A stretch of 64,000 bases of DNA from Candidatus Limnocylindrales bacterium (lineage in GTDB: Bacteria > Chloroflexota > Limnocylindria > Limnocylindrales > CSP1-4). Location of the stretch: assembly GCA_036558545.1 (NCBI GenBank), contig DATBFJ010000101.1, positions 364 through 64,363 of the forward strand, read 5' to 3'. Positions 265 to 52,269 of the stretch are shown one piece after another. Each line of letters starts with the position of its first letter. Position 1 is the first letter of the stretch. The notes beneath the pieces are model-generated. The model worked only from the letters and a program-made list of their open reading frames with translations, made no database searches and had not been told where the DNA came from. Both the position numbers and the translations under genes were made by a program.

Positions 265-962
265 CCGATCGCCCGTCGCTGACCTTGCTCGTTGTCGATG
301 ACGAGCCGGCCTGGGTCGGCGCACTTGGTGCCGTGCTGGGCAAGGCCGGTCATCGAATCGTCGCGGCATATGACGGCGACGAAGCCCTGCGACGATTTCG
401 CAGCGACAAGGTGGACGTCGTGCTCCTCGACCTGGCCATGCCGCGCCTCGACGGAGCCGAGGTGGTCCGCGTGATCCGCGCCGAATCGGACACGCCGATC
501 ATCGTCGTCTCTGGTGAGCGCGACAGGTCTGTGCCGGCGGAGCTGCTCGATCTGGGCGCGGACGACTACGTGCGCAAGGGCGTTCCATCAAGCGAGCTGC
601 TCGCGCGCATTCGCGCAGTCGCCCGGCGTCACTCGGGGAAGGCCTCGGAGCGAGTCGCTGGCGGCTGGGATCTCGATCTCAAACGCCACGAAATTCGCTG
701 GCACGAAACGCTTATCCCGGCGACAGCGATCGAGTTCATGCTGCTCGAGACGCTCATCGAGCGGCTCGGCGAAGTCGTCCCCCACGCCGACCTGCTGGCC
801 GCGGGGTGGCCGGAGGTTCGCGATCCGGAGCCACTGTGGCTCAAGCCTCATCTGGCGCGCCTGCGCGACAAGCTCAACGCCGCAGGCGCCCCCGTGCCTA
901 TGGCGGTCCGTGGCGTCGGCTACCGGCTCGAGGACGATGCTGGAGCGGACAGTCGGGGCTAA
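261..962 (+). CDS. OmpR/PhoB-family response regulator (receiver + winged-helix)
   Basis: LLVVDDEP...VDVVLLDLAMPRLDG receiver motifs. C-terminal ...EFMLLETLIERLGEVV...GVGYRLE winged-helix output domain. No cognate kinase is adjacent. Confidence 0.9.
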   Translation: MTDRPSLTLLVVDDEPAWVGALGAVLGKAGHRIVAAYDGDEALRRFRSDKVDVVLLDLAMPRLDGAEVVRVIRAESDTPIIVVSGERDRSVPAELLDLGADDYVRKGVPSSELLARIRAVARRHSGKASERVAGGWDLDLKRHEIRWHETLIPATAIEFMLLETLIERLGEVVPHADLLAAGWPEVRDPEPLWLKPHLARLRDKLNAAGAPVPMAVRGVGYRLEDDAGADSRG

Positions 963-3016
963 GCGGCTCCCGCGCAGTCGTACAGGTCCGTCGCCGAGCC
1001 ACCATCGATGATCGCTGGGTGGCAGTTGTTGCGTACCCAGCCGCTGATGCCGACCGCTTGACCCTGGCCCAGGCCAAAGCTGCCGAAGGACTGGTTCGCG
1101 GCAAGGACGAAGCGGATCTCGCCCGAATGGATGAATTGCTGGAGCTGCTCCAGCGTCGGGTAGGGATCGGATCCGTTGAAGCCGCCCATGGCCATCACGG
1201 GCTGGCCTGTAGCGAGCTGGATCGGCGCGGCCTCGTTCGAGCCGCTCGCGGCGACCAGCCAGCGCGCGCTGCCACGGTTGGCAAACAGGTATTCCAGGTC
1301 GGCCTGGTTCATGCCTCCCGGCTCGCGACTGACGAAGTTGCCCGCGGGCACGGGCACACCGGTTCCGACCGATGGGGCGAAGCCGCCGTCAGCCTGTGGG
1401 CGTTGCCCGCGCGCTCCGCCGGTCGTCGTGCCCGTGGGTGACAACAGGCCGGCCAAGCCGGTGAACGAGGCGCGCGCATAAGCCGGCCCGGCCGCCGGGT
1501 CGCCGCCGTTGTAGGACGTCGCCATCGTCTGGACTGCGTAAGCAGCCGGGCCCGTAAGCAGCGCGACCATCCCCAGGGCCGCCGCCGCAACGGTCGCGCG
1601 CTGGATTGTTCGAGCCATGGCCCCGTTGCGGTCGTCATCTGCAAAGGCGAGAAGCGCCACAGCCGCCGCGGCGCAGAGCCCGACGACGAGCACGACTTCG
1701 GCAATGCCGGGCAGGAAGTCCGGCGTCCGGTTGAGCAGCTCCCAGCCAAGTGCCGCGGTCGTGGCGATCGCCGCTGCGAGGGCGCTCGCGGCAACTCGCC
1801 GATGAGTGGCACGGGCGCGCCACAGGTCGACCATGCCGGTGCCGACCAGCGCGCCAATCGCTGGAGCCATCACGACCGTGTAGTAGGAATGGATGATGCC
1901 GGTCATGAAGCTGAAGACGAGCGCGTGAGTGGCCAGCCAGATGGTCCACATCAACACCGCCGCGCGAGGCAGGTCCGTCCGTGGCCTGCGCCAGCGCAGG
2001 ATCAGGCTCGAGGCGGCGCCGATGCCTGCGAAGGGCAGCAGCCAGGCTACCTGGCCGGCCAGCACGTTATTGAACAGGCGCAGCAGGCCCGGCTCACCGC
2101 TGAAGCTGGCACTCGAGCCGGGTCCCGGGAAGTTACTGATCCGCGCCGTCGGGGCAATGCCGCCGCTGAGCTGGCCGAATATTCGGCCCAGTCCGTCGTA
2201 GCCGAACAGAAGCTGAAGCGCGGTGCCGTCGGTCGAACCGCCGACATACGGACGCATGTCGGCCGGTGTGAGCTGCACGGCGGCGACCCACCAAAGGCTG
2301 AACACCAGCACTGACGCGGCTGCGACCAAGAGGCCCGCGACGCGACGCCGCAGCGTCACAGGAGCCGCGATCAGGAAGACGATCGCAAAGGCCGGCAACA
2401 CGAGGTACGCCTGCAGAAACTTCGTGTTGAACGCAAGCCCAACCAGCAGCCCGGACAGGATCAACCAGCGGAAGCGGCCGTCCTGGAGGGCGCGCATGAA
2501 CGCCCAGGCTGCGAGCAGCAGTAACAGGGTCAACAGGGCGTCCGGATTGTTGAAGCGGAAGATGAGCACCGCGACCGGCGTCAGTGCCGCCACGAGCGCA
2601 GCCACCGTGGCCGCCACCGGACCTGCCGTGCGCCTGACTATCGCGTACAGAACGGCGATAGCTGCAACACCGCAGATTGCCTCTGGCAGCAGGATCGTCC
2701 ACGGACTCAGGCCGAAGACTCGGACCGAGAGGCCCATGAGCATCGTCGACAACGGCGGCTTGTCGACGGTGATGAAGTTCGACGGGTCGAGCGAGCCCCA
2801 GAACCACGACGACCAGCTTTGTGCTGCGGCCTGGGCGGCCATCGAGTAGAAGGTGTTCGCGTAGCCGCTGACGGTCAGGTTGTAGACGTACAGAAACGCC
2901 GTGAAGCCGAGCACGCCGACGTGCGCCGGGAGCACCCATGACGAGCTTGCGTCGCGGCGTTCGTCGGCCGCCACGATGCTGGGCGCAACGGTCATTGGCG
3001 TATCCATTGCGTCCAT
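959..3016 (-). CDS. GT39/ArnT-like membrane glycosyltransferase (dolichyl/polyprenyl-phosphate-mannose protein mannosyltransferase family)
   Basis: Multi-TM protein with ...FITVDKPPLSTMLMGLSVRVFGLSPW... typical of the GT-C/GT39 loop 1. Start taken at ATG 3016 (MDAMDTPM). The upstream part of the 857-aa track ORF is Arg/Ala-rich read-through. Confidence 0.8.
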   Translation of the reverse strand: MDAMDTPMTVAPSIVAADERRDASSSWVLPAHVGVLGFTAFLYVYNLTVSGYANTFYSMAAQAAAQSWSSWFWGSLDPSNFITVDKPPLSTMLMGLSVRVFGLSPWTILLPEAICGVAAIAVLYAIVRRTAGPVAATVAALVAALTPVAVLIFRFNNPDALLTLLLLLAAWAFMRALQDGRFRWLILSGLLVGLAFNTKFLQAYLVLPAFAIVFLIAAPVTLRRRVAGLLVAAASVLVFSLWWVAAVQLTPADMRPYVGGSTDGTALQLLFGYDGLGRIFGQLSGGIAPTARISNFPGPGSSASFSGEPGLLRLFNNVLAGQVAWLLPFAGIGAASSLILRWRRPRTDLPRAAVLMWTIWLATHALVFSFMTGIIHSYYTVVMAPAIGALVGTGMVDLWRARATHRRVAASALAAAIATTAALGWELLNRTPDFLPGIAEVVLVVGLCAAAAVALLAFADDDRNGAMARTIQRATVAAAALGMVALLTGPAAYAVQTMATSYNGGDPAAGPAYARASFTGLAGLLSPTGTTTGGARGQRPQADGGFAPSVGTGVPVPAGNFVSREPGGMNQADLEYLFANRGSARWLVAASGSNEAAPIQLATGQPVMAMGGFNGSDPYPTLEQLQQFIHSGEIRFVLAANQSFGSFGLGQGQAVGISGWVRNNCHPAIIDGGSATDLYDCAGAA

Positions 3017-3343
3017 ATTGGCGCTTTTTCGTCGCAACTCGTTGTGCGTTGCCTGTGGCAACCCTGCGTGGGTCGGGCGGTCAGCCGGTGTCCGAAGTCG
3101 CCCAATCGCGTCGTCAGGTGGAGCATCAGGAACGGCACGGCAAAGCCGCCAAGCCGGTTGACCAGCGTGCCCAACCACAGGTACCAGAACGACACGGGCA
3201 TCTCCGAACGACCAAAGCGCTGCCTGAGGCTGAGTCGCGACGGCGCCATGGCTCGCGACGTTGGCGTGTCTGCAACCCTCGCGACACCCAACGGACACCC
3301 GCGCGCCGCTGAACGAAGCTGAGCGTCTCCCTAACGTGATCTC

Positions 3344-3607
3344 ATGAGCGATTACTCCGTTGCGCGATTCCCACCGCCGCGCGACGCCGGTGGACCGGTG
3401 ACCTGCGCGGTGTGCGGCTGCCGATTGGTGGCCATGACTGGCGCCCAGGACGGCGCCTACCGTCATTTCCCGTCCTTGATGGCAGGGCAGGATGCACGCG
3501 GCTGCCGTCCTTACTGCGTTGATGCGTTGCACGATGGGGACGGCACTGTCCTCAGGGCGGCCGAGTCGGGGCGCGGCTCGGCGGCCAATGATGCTGCTGC
3601 GGCCTGA
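3344..3607 (+). CDS. hypothetical small Cys-rich protein (87 aa)
   Basis: ORF with CAVCGC...C...C pattern and high-GC third positions, followed 28 nt later by a strong hairpin. I recognise no homology. Confidence 0.4.
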   Translation: MSDYSVARFPPPRDAGGPVTCAVCGCRLVAMTGAQDGAYRHFPSLMAGQDARGCRPYCVDALHDGDGTVLRAAESGRGSAANDAAAA

Positions 3608-3634
3608 TCGCGGCTAGCCTCCCTGTCGCCCGAC

Positions 3635-3662
3635 GAGGCCCCGCGCGAAAGCGCGGGGCCTC
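3635..3662 (+). terminator. GC-rich hairpin, probable intrinsic terminator
   Basis: GAGGCCCCGCGC-GAAA-GCGCGGGGCCTC, a perfect 12-bp stem with a GAAA loop, followed by GCGGTTTCC (short U tract). Confidence 0.5.
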
Positions 3663-3683
3663 GCGGTTTCCCCGAGGAACTCG

Positions 3684-3773
3684 ATGTTTGAACTCGTTGC
3701 TCTCGTATTCGTCATCGGCATGGCCGTGGCGCTGGTCGAGTGGTGGAAAGGTCCCGACATTCCACGCAAGTAG
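3684..3773 (+). CDS. possible 29-aa hydrophobic micro-protein (MFELVALVFVIGMAVALVEWWKGPDIPRK)
   Basis: ATG 3684 is preceded by GAGGA (3674-3678) with 5-nt spacing. It has a single predicted TM helix. It is below the size cut-off of the ORF track. Confidence 0.25.
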   Translation: MFELVALVFVIGMAVALVEWWKGPDIPRK

Positions 3774-3890
3774 CCCCCGAGCTCCTCGGCCGCAGGCCGA
3801 CTAGTGCGTTTGGAGTAGCAATTCCCGTACCAATCGGCGTTGTGAGCAACCACCGGCATGAGAGCGAGCGTCCTCAGAACAGCCCCTGTA

Positions 3891-3906
3891 TGTGACTTAA
3901 GTCACG
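3891..3906. promoter_or_regulatory. CRP/FNR-type binding-site candidate TGTGA-N6-TCACg
   Basis: TGTGACTTAAGTCACG. The inner 14 nt (3892-3905) are a perfect palindrome. Its centre lies about 112 nt upstream of the GTG start at 4011. Confidence 0.5.
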
Positions 3907-4010
3907 TACTACCTGCCCCCCTCGGATTACCGAGCGGCTAGTTCCGCACCCGATTTCGCTCCGCGACAGTCTGGCTCTACCGGAATTGATCCGCATATGG
4001 AGCTCATCAA

Positions 4011-4400
4011 GTGAAGCGATTTCTGTTCATTCTCGCCGCGGGCGCCCTTACGTTCGGCACGGTCTACGGCTTCGCCGCGAGCCTGAATCTGAACACCGAC
4101 AGCCTGGGCGCTGCCCGCACCGTCGTTGCAGCCTGCCAGGCCGGCACGCTCACCGCGACGTACACGACGACCTATTCGGCAACGGCCCCCGGCTACACCG
4201 TCGGAACCGTCACTGTCAACGGTCTTGCGTCGACGTGCTACAGCAAGGCATACAAGATCACACTCGCCAACGGATCCGATGTGTCACTCGGTGAGGCGAC
4301 TGGGACTACGCCTTCGTCGGGCACCAGCTTCTCGGCCACCTTCAGTCCGGCTGTAAGCGCCTCGTCCGCTTCTGCGGTCAGCGTAGTCATCAGCGGCTAG
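4011..4400 (+). CDS. small secreted T/S/G/V-rich protein, SipW-type signal peptide candidate (paralog 1)
   Basis: GTG start with GGAG 8 nt upstream. N-terminus MKRFLFILAAGALTFGTVYGFAASL. Paralogous to 4442-4813. Lies in an operon with an S26B signal peptidase. Confidence 0.75.
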   Translation: MKRFLFILAAGALTFGTVYGFAASLNLNTDSLGAARTVVAACQAGTLTATYTTTYSATAPGYTVGTVTVNGLASTCYSKAYKITLANGSDVSLGEATGTTPSSGTSFSATFSPAVSASSASAVSVVISG

Positions 4401-4441
4401 AGCAAGCCGCCTGTTGCCGGCCGCGGCCGGCGACCTTAACC

Positions 4442-4813
4442 ATGGCCATGCGACGTCTGCTGCTTCCGGTCATCGCTGTCGCGCTTTGCGGCACTGCGAT
4501 CGGGGCAGCGGCGTCGCTTCCTTTTGCCACGGCTGGGCTCGGCGCGGCTCGGGTCGTCATCCCGCGTTGCACGACCGGCTCACTTTCTGTAGCCCAGAAT
4601 CTGTCGGGTAACAACGTGATCAGCGTCACGGTTTCCGGGCTGCCGTCGGCCTGCGCCGGTGCGACCTTGCAGGCGGCGGTGAACAACGGCTCAGTAAGCA
4701 GCTCTGGGTCCGCGACCATCCCCGGCGGCGGTGGCAGTGTGACCGTGATCCTTGCCAGCGCCGTCGCTGCATCGACGACCGAGCAGACAGATCTCGTGGT
4801 CGTCGGACCATGA
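4442..4813 (+). CDS. small secreted T/S/G/V-rich protein, SipW-type signal peptide candidate (paralog 2)
   Basis: N-terminus MAMRRLLLPVIAVALCGTAIGAAASL. Shares the ASL...LGAAR..C and GL(P/A)S(A/T)C motifs with 4011-4400. Its stop overlaps the next start (ATGA). Confidence 0.75.
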   Translation: MAMRRLLLPVIAVALCGTAIGAAASLPFATAGLGAARVVIPRCTTGSLSVAQNLSGNNVISVTVSGLPSACAGATLQAAVNNGSVSSSGSATIPGGGGSVTVILASAVAASTTEQTDLVVVGP

Positions 4814-5535
4814 CCAAGCGTCACGTTTCAATTCTTGCGATTGCGTTTGTCTTGGGAGGCTTCAGCCTGGCCATTTCAATTGCGCCGGGATCGGCAAGCA
4901 GCCTCGCACTGAGCTCACAGCATCTCACTGCCTACCGGACGTGCACCGTGACGGCGACTCCGTCGACCACGACGAGCGTGATCGACGCCACTGTCGAACA
5001 GGCAACGCCGACGTCGAATTTCGGCAGCGCGACAACTCTTGAAGTCGACAGTGCACGCAATGACAACGCGCGTACCTACCTGAAGTTTGATCTGTCCGGC
5101 TGCCACCCAACGATCCCCAGCAGCGCAGCCGTCAAGACCGCGACACTGAACATCTACGCTTCAGCGCTGCCCAACGCCTGCCGCACGTTCGATGTCTTCC
5201 GTGTCACAGCTGCGTGGGCGGAGGCGACCGTGACATGGAACAACCAACCTTCTGATCCGACCGTCAACAAGCCGCCGGCGTCGTCCAGGACGACCTCGTT
5301 CAAGATTGGCGCAAAGAACAATTGCGACAACTCAAGCACCGGCTATGTCTCGGACATCGATGTGTTGGATGACGTGGCGGACTACGTTTCCGGCGCAGCG
5401 ACCAATTACGGCTGGATGATTCGCGACAACAGCGAGAACGCGGGTACCGCACGGACAGCAACGTTTTCGGCCAAGAACCTGGGGACATTGAGCCAGGCGC
5501 CACAGCTGATCGTCACTTACGTGACCTCGCCATGA
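4810..5535 (+). CDS. secreted DNRLRE-domain protein
   Basis: Signal-anchor N-terminus, then ...SNFGSATTLEVDSARNDNARTYLKFDLSGC...ATLNIYA...FDVFRVTAAWAEATVTWNNQP..., as in the DNRLRE/CBM-like domain (family recalled as NF033679). Confidence 0.75.
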   Translation: MTKRHVSILAIAFVLGGFSLAISIAPGSASSLALSSQHLTAYRTCTVTATPSTTTSVIDATVEQATPTSNFGSATTLEVDSARNDNARTYLKFDLSGCHPTIPSSAAVKTATLNIYASALPNACRTFDVFRVTAAWAEATVTWNNQPSDPTVNKPPASSRTTSFKIGAKNNCDNSSTGYVSDIDVLDDVADYVSGAATNYGWMIRDNSENAGTARTATFSAKNLGTLSQAPQLIVTYVTSP

Positions 5536-6089
5536 CAACGCGCCTCCGACCGCACATCAACGCGCGGAATTTGCTGCTCGCGGCTTTGCTTCTCGCCTGG
5601 GCACTGTTTCTGCGCCCGCAAGCGCTGGGAGGCTCAGCCGCCTTCATTCTCGTACGCGGCGATTCGATGCTCCCGACGTTCAATAACGGTGACCTGCTCC
5701 TTGTGTATCCGCAGGCCTCCTACTCGGTCGGCGACATAGTCGCTTACCGACTGCCCGCGTCGGAGGTGGGTGCGGGCCATCTGGTTGTCCATCGCATCTC
5801 CGCCACCAGCCCCGATGGCTTCGAGCTGCAGGGAGACAACAATCCCGTCGCGGATCCGTGGACTGCCAGACCCGCCGACGTCGCAGGCCGCGTATTCCTT
5901 CGCATTCCGGCGGTGGGCATGGTTCTGGCGTTCCTGCTTCAACCGGTTCTGGCTGGTGGACTTGCGAGCGCCGGAGTCGTCATGCTCATCTTGGCGCGCG
6001 CCACGCGGACGACGGCGTCGAGGCCACCTAAGGCGCGACGGGTCCCTGTTGCCGAGCAAGGCGCGCGCGCAACGCGTCTCGGTAGCTGA
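5532..6089 (+). CDS. signal peptidase I, SipW/Sec11 (S26B) type
   Basis: N-terminal TM, VRGDSMLPTF (Ser box), HLVVHRI (His box), LQGDNN box and a C-terminal TM. The ATGA overlap with the upstream gene indicates translational coupling. Confidence 0.85.
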   Translation: MTTRLRPHINARNLLLAALLLAWALFLRPQALGGSAAFILVRGDSMLPTFNNGDLLLVYPQASYSVGDIVAYRLPASEVGAGHLVVHRISATSPDGFELQGDNNPVADPWTARPADVAGRVFLRIPAVGMVLAFLLQPVLAGGLASAGVVMLILARATRTTASRPPKARRVPVAEQGARATRLGS

Positions 6090-7137
6090 GATCCACGACG
6101 GTCGCGAAAACGACCACCGCGTCCCCGCGGTAAGCGGGCAGAATGGTTATCTCGGCAGGAAATTCACTGCCGTCGGAGCGTGTGCCGGTGCAATCACCCT
6201 CGAGCCCGACGGGACCTGCTTCACGGTCCTGTGTGAATCGCGGGAGCACGGCCGACCACGGCGCCCGATTCGGAAGGCCGATCAGCATTGTTGCCGACCT
6301 GCCCACGACCTCGCGCGGCTCGAGACCAAAGACGTGCTTGGTGGCCGGGTTCGCGTAGACAGCCTGGCCGTCCGAGTCGATCGCTATGACGGGGTGCGGT
6401 GAGGCGTCGTACAGGTCGTCGGCCAGCTCACCATCCATGATCAACGAGCGCGACGGCTTCCACCATGGACCTGCCGCAGCTATGAGTCGCTTCGCATCGA
6501 GGATTCGAACACCACCGCGCTGTACCAACACGAGGCCGTCCGCCTGGAACTGTCGGAGCGCACGTCCCACGACCTCGCGCGCAGTGCCCAATGCGATCGC
6601 CAATTCCTGCTGCGTCACCGGCGCGACCATGTCGCCTTCTTCCTGCTGGCCCTCGGCGGTATCGAGCAGATGGGCAGCCAGCCGGTCCTTCAGCGTGCCG
6701 AAGTAGGTCGCTGTGAATGTGCGTAACACGTCTGCCAGGCGTCGTGTCGTCTCGGCGGCAAGAGCGCGACCGGCGGTTGGATTGGAGCGCTGCAGAGCCA
6801 CGACGGCAGCAAAGTCCAGATCTACGATCGTGACCGGCGTCACCGCGTCGTGCGCGACGGGCAGCGGCCCGCTCGTGGTCCCGGGCGCCGATGTGACGAT
6901 GATCGAGCGCTCACGGACGTAGCGCGTGGTCAGCTGGCGGCCATCCGGACCGCTGACATAGGCGCGCGCAATCCCTTCGAGGACGAAGCCGATTCGGCGT
7001 TCAGACAGGTCGGGATAGACGCGCTGCCCTCGCCGAAGGTCGAGAAGGTTGGCGGACGAGAGAAGTTCCTCGCGTGCAGAGTCGTCGATTTCACCGAGAA
7101 ACGAGCCGGCGAGGCCGACGAGAGGCACAGGAAGCAT
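6028..7137 (-). CDS. Crp/Fnr-family transcriptional regulator with C-terminal PAS domain
   Basis: cNMP-binding-like N-domain (RIGFVLEGIARAYVSGPDGRQLT), Crp-type HTH (TQQELAIALGTAREVVGRALRQFQADGLV), then a PAS-like region (HPVIAIDSDGQAVYANPATKHVFGLEPREVVGRS...SDGSEFPAEI). Confidence 0.85.
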   Translation of the reverse strand: MLPVPLVGLAGSFLGEIDDSAREELLSSANLLDLRRGQRVYPDLSERRIGFVLEGIARAYVSGPDGRQLTTRYVRERSIIVTSAPGTTSGPLPVAHDAVTPVTIVDLDFAAVVALQRSNPTAGRALAAETTRRLADVLRTFTATYFGTLKDRLAAHLLDTAEGQQEEGDMVAPVTQQELAIALGTAREVVGRALRQFQADGLVLVQRGGVRILDAKRLIAAAGPWWKPSRSLIMDGELADDLYDASPHPVIAIDSDGQAVYANPATKHVFGLEPREVVGRSATMLIGLPNRAPWSAVLPRFTQDREAGPVGLEGDCTGTRSDGSEFPAEITILPAYRGDAVVVFATVVDLSYRDALRARLARQQGPVAP

Positions 7138-7238
7138 CAGCGGGCAGCCTACGGTGCGTTTGATGTCGTCAGGCTCAAGATAACGCCGCGCGGGCCAGCG
7201 ATTGCGGTCATTCCGCGAGGAATCGAGCCGAGGTCGGA

Positions 7239-8492
7239 TCAGCCCGCGGCCGGTAACTCAAGTACAAACTGGCTGCCGCGCGGCGCTCGATCCTCGACGC
7301 GGAGTTCGCCCCTCATCGATCGAGCGAGATGACGGGCGGCGAAGAGTCCGATGCCCGCGCCGCGCGGCGAGTCATCCAACCGGACGAATGGTTCGAATAT
7401 TCGCTCGCGCCAGTCCGCGGGTATGCCCGGGCCGTCGTCCGTGATGGCCACGAAAGCGCGGTCGGCCTGGCGCCAGCCGTAGATATCGATGGTGCCGTCA
7501 AGAGGCGCGTACTTTGACGCGTTCTCGAGGAGATAGCCGAGCAGCCGGCGCACCTGGTCAGCATTGGCAAAGGCCAGCAACGGTCGACTCAGGAAATCCA
7601 CCGCGAGTTTGTGTCGGCGGAAAATCGGTGCCAGCTCCCTGGCCGTCTCGTCGACCGTCGCCGCGAGGTCCAGGGCAATGGTCGGCCCGGCGTCCGGCGT
7701 AAGGACGCGGAGGCTGGCGAGGATCGAATCAACCGTCTGGTCGAGGCGCTCGACCTGCTCCAGGGCGGACCGTTCCCATTGGGTCGCATCGGACGCCTCG
7801 GGATCCACCGCGTCGCGCCGACGCGCGGCACTACCCAGCAGCTCGACGTACGCACGCACGACGGCCAGCGGAGTTCGCAGGGCATGGGTTACGACCGCCA
7901 CCAGGTTGGCACGTGCCTCGTCGATCGCCCTCAGGCTCTCCACCTGTGCCTCGGCTTCACGCTGCAGTCGGTTGCGCTCGACGATGCCGGCCAGCAGCGC
8001 CGCCAGCGTTTCGAGGAACGAGACATCCCGCCGGGTGAACTCGCGCCGGCGCACGGTCTGAACGTTGAGCACGCCAACGACCGCGTCGTTCCAGATGAGC
8101 GGCACCGAGCACATCGACGTGAAGCGCGGTTCATCTACTCCGCGCACCCAATGGAAGCGACGATCGCGATGAACGTTGAGGCTGGTGGCTGGTTTGCGGG
8201 ACTGGGCAACGGTTCCGGTGATGCCCACACCCAGCGGCAGACGCGCGACGTTGATCTGCTCCGGGTCAAGGCCGTTCGTTGCGGCCAAAGTCACGCCCGT
8301 GCCATCGCGGTCCATCAGGTACAGCGAGCAGACCTCCGCCTGTGCCGCGGCCGTCGCTCGGTCGACGATCGTGCCCATCAGCTCGTCCCAGGTCCGGGCC
8401 GAGCCAGTCAGGCGAGCCACCTCGGCCAGGAACTCGAGCTCCTGGAGTCGTCGGCCGTCAGCTTCAGCCCGGCGGCCGCGCCCCTCGGCCAT
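7239..8492 (-). CDS. cytoplasmic GAF-domain sensor histidine kinase
   Basis: GAF (...CSLYLMDRDG...SVPLIWNDAVVGVLNV), H-box VTHALRTPLAVV, and HATPase N/G boxes (LLENASKYAP, DDGPGIP, GAGIGL). Start ATG 8492 lies 2 nt after the cvpA stop. The 695-aa track ORF is an over-extension. Confidence 0.9.
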   Translation of the reverse strand: MAEGRGRRAEADGRRLQELEFLAEVARLTGSARTWDELMGTIVDRATAAAQAEVCSLYLMDRDGTGVTLAATNGLDPEQINVARLPLGVGITGTVAQSRKPATSLNVHRDRRFHWVRGVDEPRFTSMCSVPLIWNDAVVGVLNVQTVRRREFTRRDVSFLETLAALLAGIVERNRLQREAEAQVESLRAIDEARANLVAVVTHALRTPLAVVRAYVELLGSAARRRDAVDPEASDATQWERSALEQVERLDQTVDSILASLRVLTPDAGPTIALDLAATVDETARELAPIFRRHKLAVDFLSRPLLAFANADQVRRLLGYLLENASKYAPLDGTIDIYGWRQADRAFVAITDDGPGIPADWRERIFEPFVRLDDSPRGAGIGLFAARHLARSMRGELRVEDRAPRGSQFVLELPAAG

Positions 8493-8494
8493 CG

Positions 8495-9127
8495 TCAGGG
8501 CTTGTGCGTCAAGAGCGGACCGCCAACCTGCCCGGGATTCCCGTTCAGGACAGGCCGAATACCCGGCAAGCCAGGCACGCCGCCGGGAATGAGGCCGCTG
8601 ATGTCCTTGGGCAGCAGTGGCCCAAGGATCGCCAGCACGATCGGGACGGTCGTCTGGCGCAGCAGCTGGACCGTGTAGGACTCGTTGAAGGAGCCGACCA
8701 GGCTCGACAGGATGCCCAGGCCGGGGGTCTCGCCGGGCACCTGGCCGTTGGCGAAATAAGTATCGAAGATGACGACGAGGATCGAAAGGATAAGCACGCC
8801 CTCGATAAAGCCGAAGATGGCACCGAGCGCCTTGTCGAATTCGCGCGTGATGCCGGTCATGTGCCTGTCCTTCAGAAAGGGATAGGCAACCACGTGGATG
8901 ACGCCGAGGATGATCGGGAAGGCGAAGGCGTAGCCGAGCAGCTCGGCGTAATCGGCCGGCATGCTCGGGAACAGGCCGTTGATCAGATCGCCAAGCGGCA
9001 CGCGCAGATATGCGCCCGCGACGAACGATATGGCAGCGAAGGCCAAACCGGCCAAGCGGTGCAGAAACCCGGTGCGCCAACCGCCGAAGGTCAGTCCGGC
9101 GACGAACCCCACGAGAATGAGGTCCAT
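8495..9127 (-). CDS. CvpA-family membrane protein
   Basis: MDLILVGFVAGLTFGGWRTGFLHRL... and four TM segments, typical of the colicin V production protein family. Confidence 0.8.
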   Translation of the reverse strand: MDLILVGFVAGLTFGGWRTGFLHRLAGLAFAAISFVAGAYLRVPLGDLINGLFPSMPADYAELLGYAFAFPIILGVIHVVAYPFLKDRHMTGITREFDKALGAIFGFIEGVLILSILVVIFDTYFANGQVPGETPGLGILSSLVGSFNESYTVQLLRQTTVPIVLAILGPLLPKDISGLIPGGVPGLPGIRPVLNGNPGQVGGPLLTHKP

Positions 9128-9255
9128 GTGCCCCTCCAGTCACGGCCGCGGCGAGTCCATAACGGCACGGCCGTTGAGCGGATGATGCCAGAACTGTCCG
9201 TGTTCGCAGCACAGCTTGCGCGCGTATCCTCTGATTGACAGCCGGAGGTTTTGAG

Positions 9256-10440
9256 ATGGCGGATACGCTGATCAAGTCGGACGTTGAGCAGGGCGCAGCG
9301 AACCAGACGGGCGCGCATATCAACAAGAACGCTTATGCCGAGGCCAAGGATTTCCTGCCCATCAAGGGCATCGACTACGTCGAATTCTGGGTCGGCAACG
9401 CCCGCCAGGCATCGGCGTACTACCGCGCTCTGTGGGGCTTCACGCCGGTGGCGTTTTCAGGTCTGGAGACCAAGGTGCGTGATCGCGCCTCGTATCTGAT
9501 GGTCGAGAACGACATCCGGTTTGTCTTCACGGCTCCACTGACACCAAACGGCGAGATCGCCGAGCACGTCCATCAGCACGGCGATGGCGTCAAGGACATT
9601 GCCTTCCTGGTCGACGATGTCGAGAGCGCATGGCGCGAGACGACGACGCGCGGAGCGGTGTCAGTGCTCGAGCCGGTCGAGCTCGACGGAGGCGATGACG
9701 GCATCCTGCGCAAGTCCGCCGTGCGCACGTATGGCGAGGTCATCCACTCCTTCATCGATCGCCGCGATTACCACGGCGTGTTCGCTCCCGGCTATCGCAA
9801 AATCAAGAATCCGGCCGCTGCCGCCACCGGTCTCTCGCTGCTGGAGATCGACCACTGCGTGGGCAACGTGGAGCTCGGCGACATGAATAAGTTCGTCGAG
9901 TACTACCGAGATGTCTTTGGCTTCTCGCAGCTCATCCATTACGACGACAAGGTCATCCACACCGAGTACTCGGCGCTGATGTCCAAGGTCATGACGAATG
10001 GCAACGGACGGATCAAGTTCCCGATCAATGAGCCGGCGTCGGGCAAGAAGAAGAGCCAGATCCAGGAGTTCCTGGACTGGTATCTCGATGCCGGTACGCA
10101 ACACGTTGCCCTGCGGACCGAAGACATCGTCGGCACGGTCCGCCAGCTGCGCGATAACGGCATCGAATTCCTGGGCATGCCGCACGAGTACTACGCGGAG
10201 CTGCCAGCGCGCGTCGGTGATGTGGGCGTGCCGATAGACGTCCTCGAGGAGCTCGGCATCGAGGCTGACCGGGACGAAGAAGGCTACCTGCTCCAGATCT
10301 TCACGCGACCCGTCCAGGACAGGCCAACGTTCTTTTTCGAGATCATCGAGCGCCACGGCTCACGCGGTTTCGGAGTGGGCAACTTCAAGGCTCTGTTCGA
10401 GGCAATCGAGCGCGAGCAAGCGAAGCGCGGCAACCTCTAG
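9256..10440 (+). CDS. hppD: 4-hydroxyphenylpyruvate dioxygenase
   Basis: GIDYVEFWVGNARQASAYY...HVALRTEDI...FFFEIIERHGSRGFGVGNFKALFEAIEREQ. ATG 9256 has GGAGG 8 nt upstream. Confidence 0.93.
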   Translation: MADTLIKSDVEQGAANQTGAHINKNAYAEAKDFLPIKGIDYVEFWVGNARQASAYYRALWGFTPVAFSGLETKVRDRASYLMVENDIRFVFTAPLTPNGEIAEHVHQHGDGVKDIAFLVDDVESAWRETTTRGAVSVLEPVELDGGDDGILRKSAVRTYGEVIHSFIDRRDYHGVFAPGYRKIKNPAAAATGLSLLEIDHCVGNVELGDMNKFVEYYRDVFGFSQLIHYDDKVIHTEYSALMSKVMTNGNGRIKFPINEPASGKKKSQIQEFLDWYLDAGTQHVALRTEDIVGTVRQLRDNGIEFLGMPHEYYAELPARVGDVGVPIDVLEELGIEADRDEEGYLLQIFTRPVQDRPTFFFEIIERHGSRGFGVGNFKALFEAIEREQAKRGNL

Positions 10441-50138: not shown

Positions 50139-50214
50139 CGTGGCCCAAACCTCTCAGCCGCGTTGCGGAAGGGAGATGCTACATTGCAGGAACATTGCTC
50201 CCTGGGGGGTCTCA

Positions 50215-52269
50215 ATGCGTTCTCGATGGTCAAGATTCAGTAGCCGGGTCAGGGCGTATCCGCGCGCCGCGGTCCTGATCGTCGTGGTCATCGGGATCAC
50301 CCTCGTCGGTAGTGCCGCGTACCTGGCGACGCGGTCGGACCAGCCATCCGCGGGCAACCTTCCAACCCAGACCTCGGCCGGACGGTGGAGCCTCGTGACG
50401 CTTGCCCAGCAAATCGATGCGGGCAATGTGACGGCCGTCACTCTCGGCACTAACGGGGCCGGCGGGCAGGTCCTCCTGGCACAGACGCCCGCGGGTGAAT
50501 ACGTCGCCATTTCCGCTCCGGCGTCAGTCGCGGACGGCGCACAAGCGCTGATCAGCATGGGTTACGGCGACCTGCTGTCGCCCAATGTTCGCGAACTCGC
50601 GGACTCCACCTCCGTCGCGGCAAGCAGCGATCCGGTCAAGTCATTCATCAACATCGGTCTACTCCTGGTCCTGGGTGTCACGTTGGCGTTCTTCCTGTGG
50701 CGGATGCGCGATCGACTGCCGATTGGCGCGCGCGGCGCTGGACGCTTCTCGACGATCATGCCGGTGCCCACCCCGACTGGCGGCGGCACGACCGCGCCCG
50801 CACCGGTCAAAACCGCGCCGCCCGTCGGCTCCTCCGGTCTTGTACATCTCGACGATGTCGCCGGCTGCGAAGAAGCCAAGCTGGAGCTCGCCGAGCCGAT
50901 CGAGTTCCTGCGTCATCCCGACCGATTCCGCAGCCTGGGCGCGCGCGTGCCGCGCGGCATTCTCCTGTACGGGCCGCCGGGGACCGGCAAAACCATGCTC
51001 GCGCGCGCCGTCGCCACCGAAGCGGGCGTGCCGTTCCACCATGCCTCTGGGTCAGACTTTGTCGAAAAATATGTGGGCGTGGGCGCTCGACGTGTGCGTG
51101 ATCTCTTCGCCCAGTCGCGCAAGCTGGGCAAGGGCGTCATCTTCATTGACGAGTTCGACGCGTTGGGCAAGGCCCGTGGTGGCGCAAACAGCCACGAGGA
51201 GCGGGAGCAGACGCTCAATCAGCTGCTCGTCGAGATGGACGGCTTCACGACATCCACGGAGATCGTCGTGATCGCCGCCACGAATCGACTCGACGTGCTG
51301 GACGAAGCGCTGCTACGGCCGGGCAGGTTCAACCGAAAGGTCCACGTCGGCCTGCCGGACGTGGCCGGCCGGCGCGCGATCCTCGACGTCCATGCCCGCA
51401 ACAAGCCGCTTTCACCTGACGTCGACCTCGACCAGATCGCGCGCAAGACGTACGGCTTCTCCGGCGCGCAGCTCGCCGACCTGCTCAACGAGGCGGCAAT
51501 CATCGCCGCACGTCACGAGCATTCGACGATCAGCAATGAGGACATGCACGCCGGCTGGCTGAAAGTCGCCGTGGGCACGGGTCGCCGCCGCTCCATGAAC
51601 GAGCGCGATCGGGCCATCATTGCCGCCCACGAGGTTGGTCACGCGATCTGCGGCAAGGTCCACGGCGACACGCGCCGCGTAGAGGAGATCTCGCTCTTCG
51701 CCCATGGCGAAGCGCTGGGTGTCACGGTCAGTTCCCAGGAGGACAACGACCTGCCGTCAGAATCGGATCTGCGCGCGCGACTGATCGCGCTCATGGGCGG
51801 CCGGGCCGCCGAAGAGCTGCTGTTCCAGGAGGTGACGCCCGGCGCAGCGAACGACTTCGAAAAAGCCACTCAGATTGCGACGAGCATGGTCAACAGGTGG
51901 GGCATGGGCCGCGATCCGCGCGAAAGCGAGTCGCAGGGCAGAGGATCGCTCTCCTTCTTTGCCGCGAAGGCCGGCGCCACGTTGCCCTCGGAGCTGCAGG
52001 CCGCGGCGACGCGGGCGGTCGCCGCGATCCTGGATCAGGCTTATCGCGACGCGCGCGAGACGCTCATCGAGAATCTGGCGACGTTGCGCCGCATCGGCGT
52101 CTACCTCGTGCAGCAGGAACGCATCGACGGCGACACGTTTGATGCCCTGTTCGATGGTCGCCTCGAGGTTCCCGATGCGGACTCCGAGTGGCGCCCAGCG
52201 GCCGCACGGCCGCGAGACTGGTCGTCGATTGGCGCGCTGGCCACGAGTCTGGAAACGCCGCCTCAGTAG
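50215..52269 (+). CDS. ftsH: FtsH-family ATP-dependent zinc metalloprotease
   Basis: Two TMs, GPPGTGKT Walker A, IIFIDEFDA Walker B, SRH region and HEVGHAI zinc site. Start ATG 50215 after a G-rich RBS. Confidence 0.88.
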   Translation: MRSRWSRFSSRVRAYPRAAVLIVVVIGITLVGSAAYLATRSDQPSAGNLPTQTSAGRWSLVTLAQQIDAGNVTAVTLGTNGAGGQVLLAQTPAGEYVAISAPASVADGAQALISMGYGDLLSPNVRELADSTSVAASSDPVKSFINIGLLLVLGVTLAFFLWRMRDRLPIGARGAGRFSTIMPVPTPTGGGTTAPAPVKTAPPVGSSGLVHLDDVAGCEEAKLELAEPIEFLRHPDRFRSLGARVPRGILLYGPPGTGKTMLARAVATEAGVPFHHASGSDFVEKYVGVGARRVRDLFAQSRKLGKGVIFIDEFDALGKARGGANSHEEREQTLNQLLVEMDGFTTSTEIVVIAATNRLDVLDEALLRPGRFNRKVHVGLPDVAGRRAILDVHARNKPLSPDVDLDQIARKTYGFSGAQLADLLNEAAIIAARHEHSTISNEDMHAGWLKVAVGTGRRRSMNERDRAIIAAHEVGHAICGKVHGDTRRVEEISLFAHGEALGVTVSSQEDNDLPSESDLRARLIALMGGRAAEELLFQEVTPGAANDFEKATQIATSMVNRWGMGRDPRESESQGRGSLSFFAAKAGATLPSELQAAATRAVAAILDQAYRDARETLIENLATLRRIGVYLVQQERIDGDTFDALFDGRLEVPDADSEWRPAAARPRDWSSIGALATSLETPPQ

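Follow-up and report, generated by a model that had tools for sequence, protein, structure and literature searches.

A conserved S26B signal peptidase cassette with CBM96 and small predicted beta-sandwich proteins: a candidate extracellular fibre or matrix module of uncultured soil bacteria

The 64,000-nt stretch of contig DATBFJ010000101.1 analysed here (the window) comes from an uncultured soil Chloroflexota bacterium and carries an operon of four co-directional open reading frames (ORFs). The operon encodes two small secreted proteins (ORF1 and ORF2), a secreted DNRLRE/CBM96 protein (ORF3) and a signal peptidase I of the S26B class (ORF4), and the same gene order is kept in related loci from several bacterial phyla. 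All three secreted classes share a near-invariant A-A-S-L-x-L-x-S-x-x-L motif located directly after the signal helix. With a probability of roughly 0.5, the cassette is an extracellular fibre or matrix module in which the small proteins would assemble by donor-strand exchange without a chaperone and the CBM96 protein would act as anchor or tip, analogous to the tapA-sipW-tasA system of Bacillus subtilis.

Gene content and conserved order of the cassette

A first-pass annotation of the window, made from the sequence, had described an operon in which a dedicated peptidase of the Sec11/SipW class (S26B) is accompanied by three secreted proteins cognate to it. The four co-directional genes are confirmed at the coordinates it gave (Table 1), as are the ATGA stop/start overlaps that join ORF2 to ORF3 (4810-4813) and ORF3 to ORF4 (5532-5535), and the operon as described is supported by the searches and surveys reported below. 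ORF1 and ORF2 were said to be paralogs, and they are indeed 33% identical (E 1e-12).

Table 1. Features of the cassette and its surroundings in the window
Feature	Position	Strand	Description
Crp/Fnr-type palindrome TGTGACTTAAGTCACG	3891-3906		3' end 104 bp upstream of ORF1 start
Shine-Dalgarno-like GGAG	3999-4002	+	8 nt before the ORF1 GTG; read off the sequence
ORF1	4011-4400	+	129 aa, GTG start; type-1 small secreted protein
GC-rich hairpin in the ORF1-ORF2 spacer	4413-4434	+	9-bp stem, CGCG loop; RNAfold
ORF2	4442-4813	+	123 aa; type-2 small secreted protein
ORF3	4810-5535	+	241 aa; secreted DNRLRE/CBM96 protein
ORF4	5532-6089	+	185 aa; S26B (Sec11/archaeal/SipW-class) signal peptidase I
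Crp-family regulator with C-terminal PAS domain	6028-7137	-	369 aa; convergent with the cassette

The small proteins are rich in threonine, serine, alanine and glycine, which together make up 61% of mature ORF1 and 55% of mature ORF2. ORF1 begins with a signal helix, which is followed by the motif A22-A-S-L-N-L-N-T-D-S-L-G-A34 and by two cysteines, Cys42 and Cys76. ORF2 has the same N-terminal motif and two conserved cysteines, and ends in VVVGP. At E values up to 0.001, 458 homologs were found for ORF1 and 207 for ORF2. None has a functional annotation; those that are named are nearly all called 'hypothetical protein', apart from two generic JGI labels, and the few with a named source come from metagenome-assembled genomes (MAGs) of Candidatus Limnocylindria, a class of Chloroflexota, or of other Chloroflexota. 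A joint ORF1/ORF2 profile, run against 1.84 billion representatives, matched 1,350 clusters (50% identity) at E up to 0.001, of which 264 reach 1e-10. Members of the family are typically 120-140 residues long. Exactly two cysteines are present in 114 of 128 members, a Gly-Pro ending in 66 of 128, and a more distant branch of the family comes from Actinomycetota MAGs.

The family lies outside the curated databases. Neither ORF1 nor ORF2 matched any NCBIfam or Pfam model at E up to 1, and 130 diverse family members gave no match to any relevant family in either collection. The family profile likewise found no match among PDB sequences. The first-pass annotation had suggested a search against the exported protein families TIGR04087-TIGR04090; none of ORF1, ORF2 and ORF3 matched them at E up to 1, nor did any of the 130 family members at E up to 0.1, and membership of the small proteins in these families is rejected.

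The same annotation had recognized a DNRLRE domain in the 241-residue protein, and hidden Markov model (HMM) searches agree. ORF3 scores 105.1 bits against the DNRLRE model NF033679 (cut-off 34) over residues 59-236 and 77.8 bits against the CBM96 model PF24517 (cut-off 26), and among PDB sequences it has weak matches to 7vbo and 8wab, a CBM96 and a DNRLRE structure. Its N-terminal motif is S30-S-L-A-L-S-S-Q-H-L-T-A-Y-R-T-C45, and four cysteines are invariant in an alignment of cassette CBM96 proteins. The founding CBM96 module, which comes from an alginate lyase, binds alginate and is the sole module for which binding has been shown (PMC9971899). ORF3 is regarded as a candidate polysaccharide-binding anchor, tip or nucleator.

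Signal peptidases of the S26B class use a Ser/His catalytic pair in which the histidine replaces the lysine of S26A enzymes. ORF4 carries the corresponding boxes, GDSMLP from residue 43 (Ser45), VVHRI from residue 85 (His87) and GDNN from residue 101 (Asp102), and the Ser, His and GDNN boxes are also present in the peptidases of six related loci. Hydrophobic segments lie near both ends of the protein, at about residues 13-27 and 125-153. The best relatives of ORF4 among PDB sequences are human SEC11A (7p2p, E 7e-6) and SEC11C, and its Ser/His/Asp boxes align to the SGSMEP, HRV and GDNN stretches of SEC11A. ORF4 exceeds the cut-off of the archaeal/eukaryotic-type model TIGR02228 (68.8 bits, cut-off 51.85) and falls below that of the bacterial-type model TIGR02227 (25.6 bits, cut-off 47) and far below that of the Bacillus SipW equivalog NF046067 (22.9 bits, cut-off 190). 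The description of the enzyme as SipW-type therefore stands for its class and its boxes and fails for orthology: ORF4 is genuinely of the S26B class without being orthologous to Bacillus SipW. Its substrates would be the neighbouring pre-proteins, which would be processed by ORF4 rather than by the housekeeping peptidase.

Gene order was followed in two surveys. The first covered nine contigs reached from homologs of the small proteins, and in all nine the CBM96 and S24/S26 peptidase genes lie directly downstream, the peptidase gene being fragmented in one. The second scanned one genome per GTDB species with an alignment of cassette CBM96 proteins and yielded 63 cassette-type loci, all of them in MAGs. 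As labelled in the source records, 44 belong to Chloroflexota (Limnocylindria/-ales and unclassified), 14 to Actinomycetota (including Acidimicrobiia and Actinomycetes), four to Dormibacterota and one to 'Binatia'. An HMM census placed the peptidase gene immediately downstream of the CBM96 gene and on the same strand in 63/63 loci. Two to five genes of the small-protein family precede the CBM96 gene in every locus with enough upstream DNA (57/57). These small genes fall into two orthologous types, and one to three type-1 genes are invariably followed in turn by type 2, CBM96 and peptidase. The type-2 gene stands immediately upstream of the CBM96 gene in all 60 classified loci and is single except in L066. 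Synteny, which the first-pass annotation had wished to see checked, is thus kept in every relative examined, and its recurrence in 63/63 loci from genomes of other species indicates that the operon is not a chance arrangement. The genes that flank the cassette vary among the loci examined.

ORF1 is the best-conserved protein of the cassette, with a median identity to the window protein of 66%, compared with 51% for ORF2, 52% for ORF3 and 49% for ORF4.

Several irregular loci were also seen. Some MAGs carry two cassettes on different contigs (L045/L050, L032/L043 and L071/L072), and L066 holds a tandem partial duplication, with a second, incomplete cassette. The CBM96 or peptidase gene is broken up in several loci (L001, L067, L072), which could reflect pseudogenes or long-read indel errors. 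One entry of the representative library, P0241, is a 275-residue sequence in which a type-1 N-terminus is joined to a full type-2 protein by an Arg-rich, out-of-frame stretch; this 'fusion' is a frameshift or gene-calling artefact and not a natural tandem subunit.

The low G+C content of the third gene had been taken as a hint of foreign origin. The hand counts behind that hint (36, 33, 31 and 41) are exact, but the conclusion drawn from them is not supported. ORF3 has a G+C content of 0.59, with codon positions 1 and 2 at 0.49 and 0.56 and third positions (GC3) at 0.72, so the dip stems from positions 1 and 2, that is, from amino-acid make-up. Across the window GC3 ranges over 0.62-0.84 (median 0.785), and the four genes, at 0.72-0.78, lie within these limits; the G+C content of the 2-kb cassette bin (0.627) equals the lowest of the other 2-kb bins of the window without falling outside their range. 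Foreign origin on compositional grounds is rejected. Composition gives no sign of a recent arrival, and the spread over several phyla together with the varying flanks is compatible with old inheritance or with past transfer.

The shared N-terminal motif and the case for a donor-strand fibre

The motif that follows the signal helix is written slightly differently in the two kinds of secreted protein. The small proteins have G-x-A-A-S-L-x-[LV]-[TS]-S-x-[ST]-L-G-A, then seven residues and the first invariant cysteine, a pattern present in 116 of 133 ORFs. The CBM96 proteins of related loci have A-A-S-L-x-[LV]-x-S-Q-x-[LF]-T-P, then three residues and an invariant cysteine (58 of 68 ORFs). Within the small-protein family the motif is the best-conserved segment. 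The small, invariant residues G20, A22, A23 and S24 of ORF1 fit the -3/-1 rule of signal peptidase cleavage, making Ala22 and Ser24 the candidate residues after which ORF1 would be cut.

Structures were predicted with AlphaFold2 for the ORF1 precursor (75-sequence alignment) and for a mature form, Ala23-Gly129 (103 sequences). The precursor model has a mean predicted local distance difference test (pLDDT) score of 79 and contains a seven-strand beta-sandwich of about 95 residues. It also contains one long, confident helix at residues 2-30, with pLDDT of 83-89 over the first 20 residues, and pLDDT falls below 50 at residues 27-35. The mature model has the same sandwich at pLDDT 83-93 and a predicted template modelling score (pTM) of 0.71; its first 12 residues, ASLNLNTDSLGA, lack secondary structure and are disordered (mean pLDDT about 35). 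In both models the N-terminal motif is the only part of the ORF1 monomer that AlphaFold leaves unplaced. ORF1 has, in other words, a conserved terminal extension that lies outside its own predicted fold, as expected of the donor-strand class.

The following mechanism is proposed. The three pre-proteins would be exported by Sec and cut by membrane-bound ORF4 beside the invariant G-x-A-A-S-L, in ORF1 at one of the two positions named above. Cleavage would expose a common mature N-terminus, (A)-S-L-x-L-x-S-x-x-L-G-A, with alternating hydrophobic residues, which would be tethered to the domain body by the first conserved cysteine of a probable disulfide. As a donor strand, this N-terminus may insert into the beta-sandwich of the following subunit unaided by a chaperone, in the manner of TasA, AbpA, AbpX and Tafi filaments. 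The role of repeating major subunit is suggested for ORF1 by its position as the first gene, its conservation, the multiplication of type-1 genes and the hairpin that often follows them, and ORF2, the single type-2 protein, would be a minor or adaptor subunit. The CBM96 protein, bearing the same strand, may sit at one end of the polymer, either as a nucleator like TapA or as an anchor to wall or matrix polysaccharide. Export by the twin-arginine translocation (Tat) pathway was considered and rejected: type-1 proteins start with K-R and have no Tat consensus, and type-2 proteins often carry RR but show a Tat-like pattern in 5 of 115 cases.

Several observations argue for a fibre of this kind. 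Chloroflexota, Dormibacterota and Actinomycetota are single-membrane lineages in which the chaperone-usher route is unavailable, which favours a chaperone-free fibre. The motif is the best-conserved segment of the family and yet has no place in the monomer model, as a strand meant for a neighbouring subunit would. Its presence in both the small and the CBM96 proteins parallels the donor-strand sequence that TapA shares with TasA (PMC9674648). Dedicated S26B-class peptidases accompany the genes of TasA, AbpX and Tafi filaments (PMC9674648; PMC12337348; bioRxiv 10.64898/2026.01.04.697558), which together with the strict synteny of the cassette points the same way. The fibre or matrix function put forward in the first-pass annotation continues to be a proposal, one strengthened by the shared motif, the fixed type-1/type-2/CBM96 order and the conservation of ORF1.

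Other observations weigh against it. Neither in sequence nor in fold do the small proteins match a known donor-strand subunit. When both ORF1 models were compared with the PDB by Foldseek, nothing reached E 0.001 (best E 0.011-0.068), and the top 50 contained no TasA-superfamily subunit and no pilin, the queries being monomer models and not fibre-state ones. The PDB does hold TasA monomers (5OF1, 5OF2) and cryo-electron microscopy structures of TasA, AbpA and Tafi filaments (PMC9674648; PMC9245690; PMC12337348). The ORF1 monomer model already has seven strands and no open groove is shown in it; mature subunits of about 105 residues are half the size of known TasA-superfamily subunits; and the conserved motif could simply be a recognition site for the peptidase. 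Every source genome is a MAG, so that the system is known from genes alone.

If the motif does no more than direct recognition and cleavage by the dedicated peptidase, then the cassette would encode secreted, non-polymeric surface or matrix proteins. These could be soluble or wall-associated monomers or small complexes, for instance a CBM96 lectin with two immunoglobulin (Ig)-like accessory proteins that bind or modify exopolysaccharide. Such an arrangement explains the dedicated peptidase and the motif beside the cleavage site without polymerisation, and it agrees with the complete-looking seven-strand sandwich of the monomer model, with the weak Foldseek neighbours, which are generic Ig-like or CBM-like/sugar-binding sandwiches and mostly of the latter kind, and with the proven polysaccharide binding of a CBM96 module in another protein (PMC9971899). 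It is the main rival of the fibre model but is considered less likely. The motif runs about 12 residues past any plausible -3/-1 site, beyond what type I signal peptidases normally read, and the fixed type-1/type-2/CBM96 order, the multiplication of type-1 genes only and the high conservation of ORF1 are left unexplained.

Two further explanations are improbable. The signal helices could be uncleaved anchors that tether a complex displaying beta-sandwich and CBM96 domains at the cell surface, with ORF4 acting on another substrate or being non-catalytic; the long, confident helix at the start of the ORF1 precursor model would fit this. Against it stand the intact Ser/His/Asp boxes of ORF4, conserved across the aligned peptidases, and the invariant small G-x-A-A-S residues at the end of the helix, which fit the -3/-1 rule, and the strict co-inheritance with a peptidase would have no explanation.

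The small proteins could instead be very diverged members of the TasA superfamily, with a minimised jelly-roll akin to TasA, AbpX, Tafi or thread subunits that has passed beyond detection. The operon logic and the class of peptidase are the same (bioRxiv 10.64898/2026.01.04.697558), and the link between AbpA and TasA itself required the most sensitive profile methods and manual comparison (PMC9245690). Neither ORF1 nor ORF2 matched PF12389 at E up to 1, however, and none of the 130 diverse family members did so at E up to 0.1; a comparison of the family profile with a manually entered B. subtilis TasA sequence by hhalign gave a probability of 0.6%; both Foldseek runs against the PDB lacked such a match in their top 50; and the mature proteins are about half the size. 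The HMM searches and hhalign lead to the rejection of TasA or camelysin membership, and the statement of the first-pass annotation that the small proteins do not resemble TasA or camelysin is borne out by PF12389, hhalign and predicted fold alike.

Putative transcription signals and neighbouring genes

The GGAG upstream of ORF1 is also frequent at the equivalent position among aligned upstream regions of related loci. A scan for sigma-70 promoters across 3500-7400 found no site. The hairpin in the ORF1-ORF2 spacer of the window is a weak signal (z -0.65). RNAfold gives the type-1/type-2 spacers of related loci a median minimum free energy of -42 kcal/mol, with z below -2 relative to shuffled sequences in 32 of 56. 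The hairpin has no T-run and so is not a canonical intrinsic terminator; it may be a partial terminator or an mRNA-stabilising element behind the gene for the putative major subunit. A structured spacer behind the type-1 gene fits a higher dose of that subunit, which is not proof of it.

Upstream of ORF1 lies a Crp/Fnr-type palindrome with one mismatch to TGTGA-N6-TCACA, one of two such sites in the window; its first base coincides with the start coordinate given in the first-pass annotation (3891). The second (TGTGACGGCCGTCACT, at most one mismatch) is located at 50427-50442, within the coding region of an FtsH-like AAA protease (50140-52269), and is probably a chance occurrence. The regulator gene that converges on the cassette encodes HTH_Crp_2 (57 bits) and PAS_9 (42 bits) domains and a TIGR00229 PAS box. 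Its 3' end (-) overlaps that of ORF4 (+) by 62 bp (6028-6089), and the same convergence is found in L004 and L005.

Related loci can carry a TGTGAC-N4-GTCAC site some 110-185 bp ahead of their first small gene: 14 of 53 do, as does L004 (the loci with the site being L004, L010, L011, L013, L020, L023, L024, L026, L027, L031, L034, L036, L039, L042 and L067). An alignment of 16 upstream regions, elsewhere 47% identical, shows GTGAC and TCAC unchanged throughout. A Crp homolog is adjacent in 14/14 loci with the site and in 0/49 loci without a detected site, 10 of the 49 having too little upstream DNA to scan. The regulator, of the Crp or Crp-PAS type, is found either downstream of the cassette and convergent with it, or upstream. 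Given this perfect co-occurrence of site and regulator, in the sub-clade of the window the cassette very probably belongs to a Crp-PAS regulon, making the palindrome a putative operator through whose TGTGAC-N4-GTCACG sequence the adjacent Crp-PAS regulator would control transcription.

No further paralogs of the small proteins were found elsewhere in the window, and an anti-phage defence system was considered and rejected, PADLOC giving no match.

Just upstream of the Thr/Ser-rich cassette is a gene for a PMT_2/YkcB-type glycosyltransferase resembling protein O-mannosyltransferases (959-3532, minus strand). In 78 related loci the flanks contain no homolog of it; its position next to the cassette therefore seems incidental, and a functional link was rejected. 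Its 857-residue ORF call is probably overextended at the N-terminus, since the Pfam domain starts at residue 257. A 695-residue ORF on the same strand (7239-9326) contains a GAF-HisKA-HATPase kinase and lacks any domain ahead of residue 311. A CvpA (colicin V production) ORF, again on the minus strand (8495-9127), overlaps the first third of this ORF, and the true start of the kinase is probably near 8400.

Significance and comparison with known systems

Donor-strand matrix fibres matured by S26B peptidases (TasA, ABP, AbpX, Tafi) have recently emerged as a biofilm theme shared by single-membrane bacteria and archaea. The kind of system described here, an operon that joins a dedicated S26B peptidase to its cognate exported subunits, is known; what is new is its subunit family, its CBM96 partner and its range of hosts. 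In full-text searches of the literature, no paper was found that links CBM96/DNRLRE proteins with a dedicated signal peptidase, and no description of the cassette in Limnocylindria, Dormibacterota or Actinomycetota. The cassette follows the same logic with a different and much smaller subunit family, the roughly 1,350 clusters of which stand outside curated databases. It is tentatively suggested, at somewhat less than even odds, that these proteins form a new family, unrelated to TasA, of minimal (about 100-residue) beta-sandwich subunits that build a strand-donating surface fibre, capped or anchored by CBM96, matured by an S26B peptidase, and widespread in soil Chloroflexota (Limnocylindria), Dormibacterota and Actinomycetota.

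If this is true, the combination of dedicated signal peptidase and donor-strand fibre would have arisen a second time, independently, in single-membrane bacteria. The hosts are abundant soil lineages known only from metagenomes. A fibre would bring a new subunit fold into the class, would make the surface structures and adhesion of Limnocylindria and Dormibacterota accessible to study for the first time, and, as a compact four-gene system that needs no chaperone, would be amenable to heterologous expression. The clean pairing of Crp-PAS regulator and operator is in itself a testable regulatory circuit.

The families TIGR04087-TIGR04090 resemble the cassette proteins in being exported, in having a distinctive signal region and in being encoded beside an S26B peptidase. 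They differ in sequence, as no protein of the window and 0/130 diverse members of the small-protein family match them.

Small Ig-like subunits, extended at the N-terminus by a segment of alternating hydrophobic residues, are found in chaperone-usher pili (such as FimA/FimH) too, and the genes of these pili run in the order major subunit, adaptor, lectin-bearing terminal subunit, some with a stem-loop after the major-subunit gene (established knowledge; PMC6615685). Unlike them, the cassette works with neither chaperone nor usher and without an outer membrane, it brings its own signal peptidase, and its subunits have no similarity to pilins in sequence or in Foldseek.

The AbpX, AbpA, Tafi (TafA/E and TafD) and Sulfolobus thread loci come closer, as they combine a major pilin, one or more minor pilins, a tip protein or adhesin, a dedicated signal peptidase I and often a transcription factor. 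In the AbpX locus of P. abyssi the signal peptidase I belongs to TIGR02228, and TasA-superfamily subunits assemble by strand donation without a chaperone (bioRxiv 10.64898/2026.01.04.697558; PMC12337348; PMC9245690). The cassette differs from these loci in its subunit family, which is unannotated and about half the size, in its lack of a DUF5305 accessory protein and of an SLH or LPXTG anchor, in a peptidase with two hydrophobic segments and not ten transmembrane helices, and in its hosts, which are uncultured Chloroflexota, Dormibacterota and Actinomycetota.

The parallel with tapA-sipW-tasA, which the first-pass annotation had drawn, holds in part. In that system a dedicated S26B peptidase matures TasA, the N-terminal strand of TasA completes the sandwich of the next subunit, and TapA, whose N-terminal sequence resembles that of TasA, has been proposed to supply the first strand (PMC9674648). 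The subunits of the cassette are beta-sandwiches of about 105 residues that have neither a PF12389 match nor similarity to TasA in sequence or fold, the accessory protein is a CBM96/DNRLRE protein and not TapA, and the peptidase is not a SipW ortholog and is encoded by the last gene. Common to both systems are a single-membrane host, a dedicated S26B peptidase in one operon with its cognate secreted substrates, and an N-terminal segment shared by the major subunit, here the putative one, and the accessory protein (PMC9674648).

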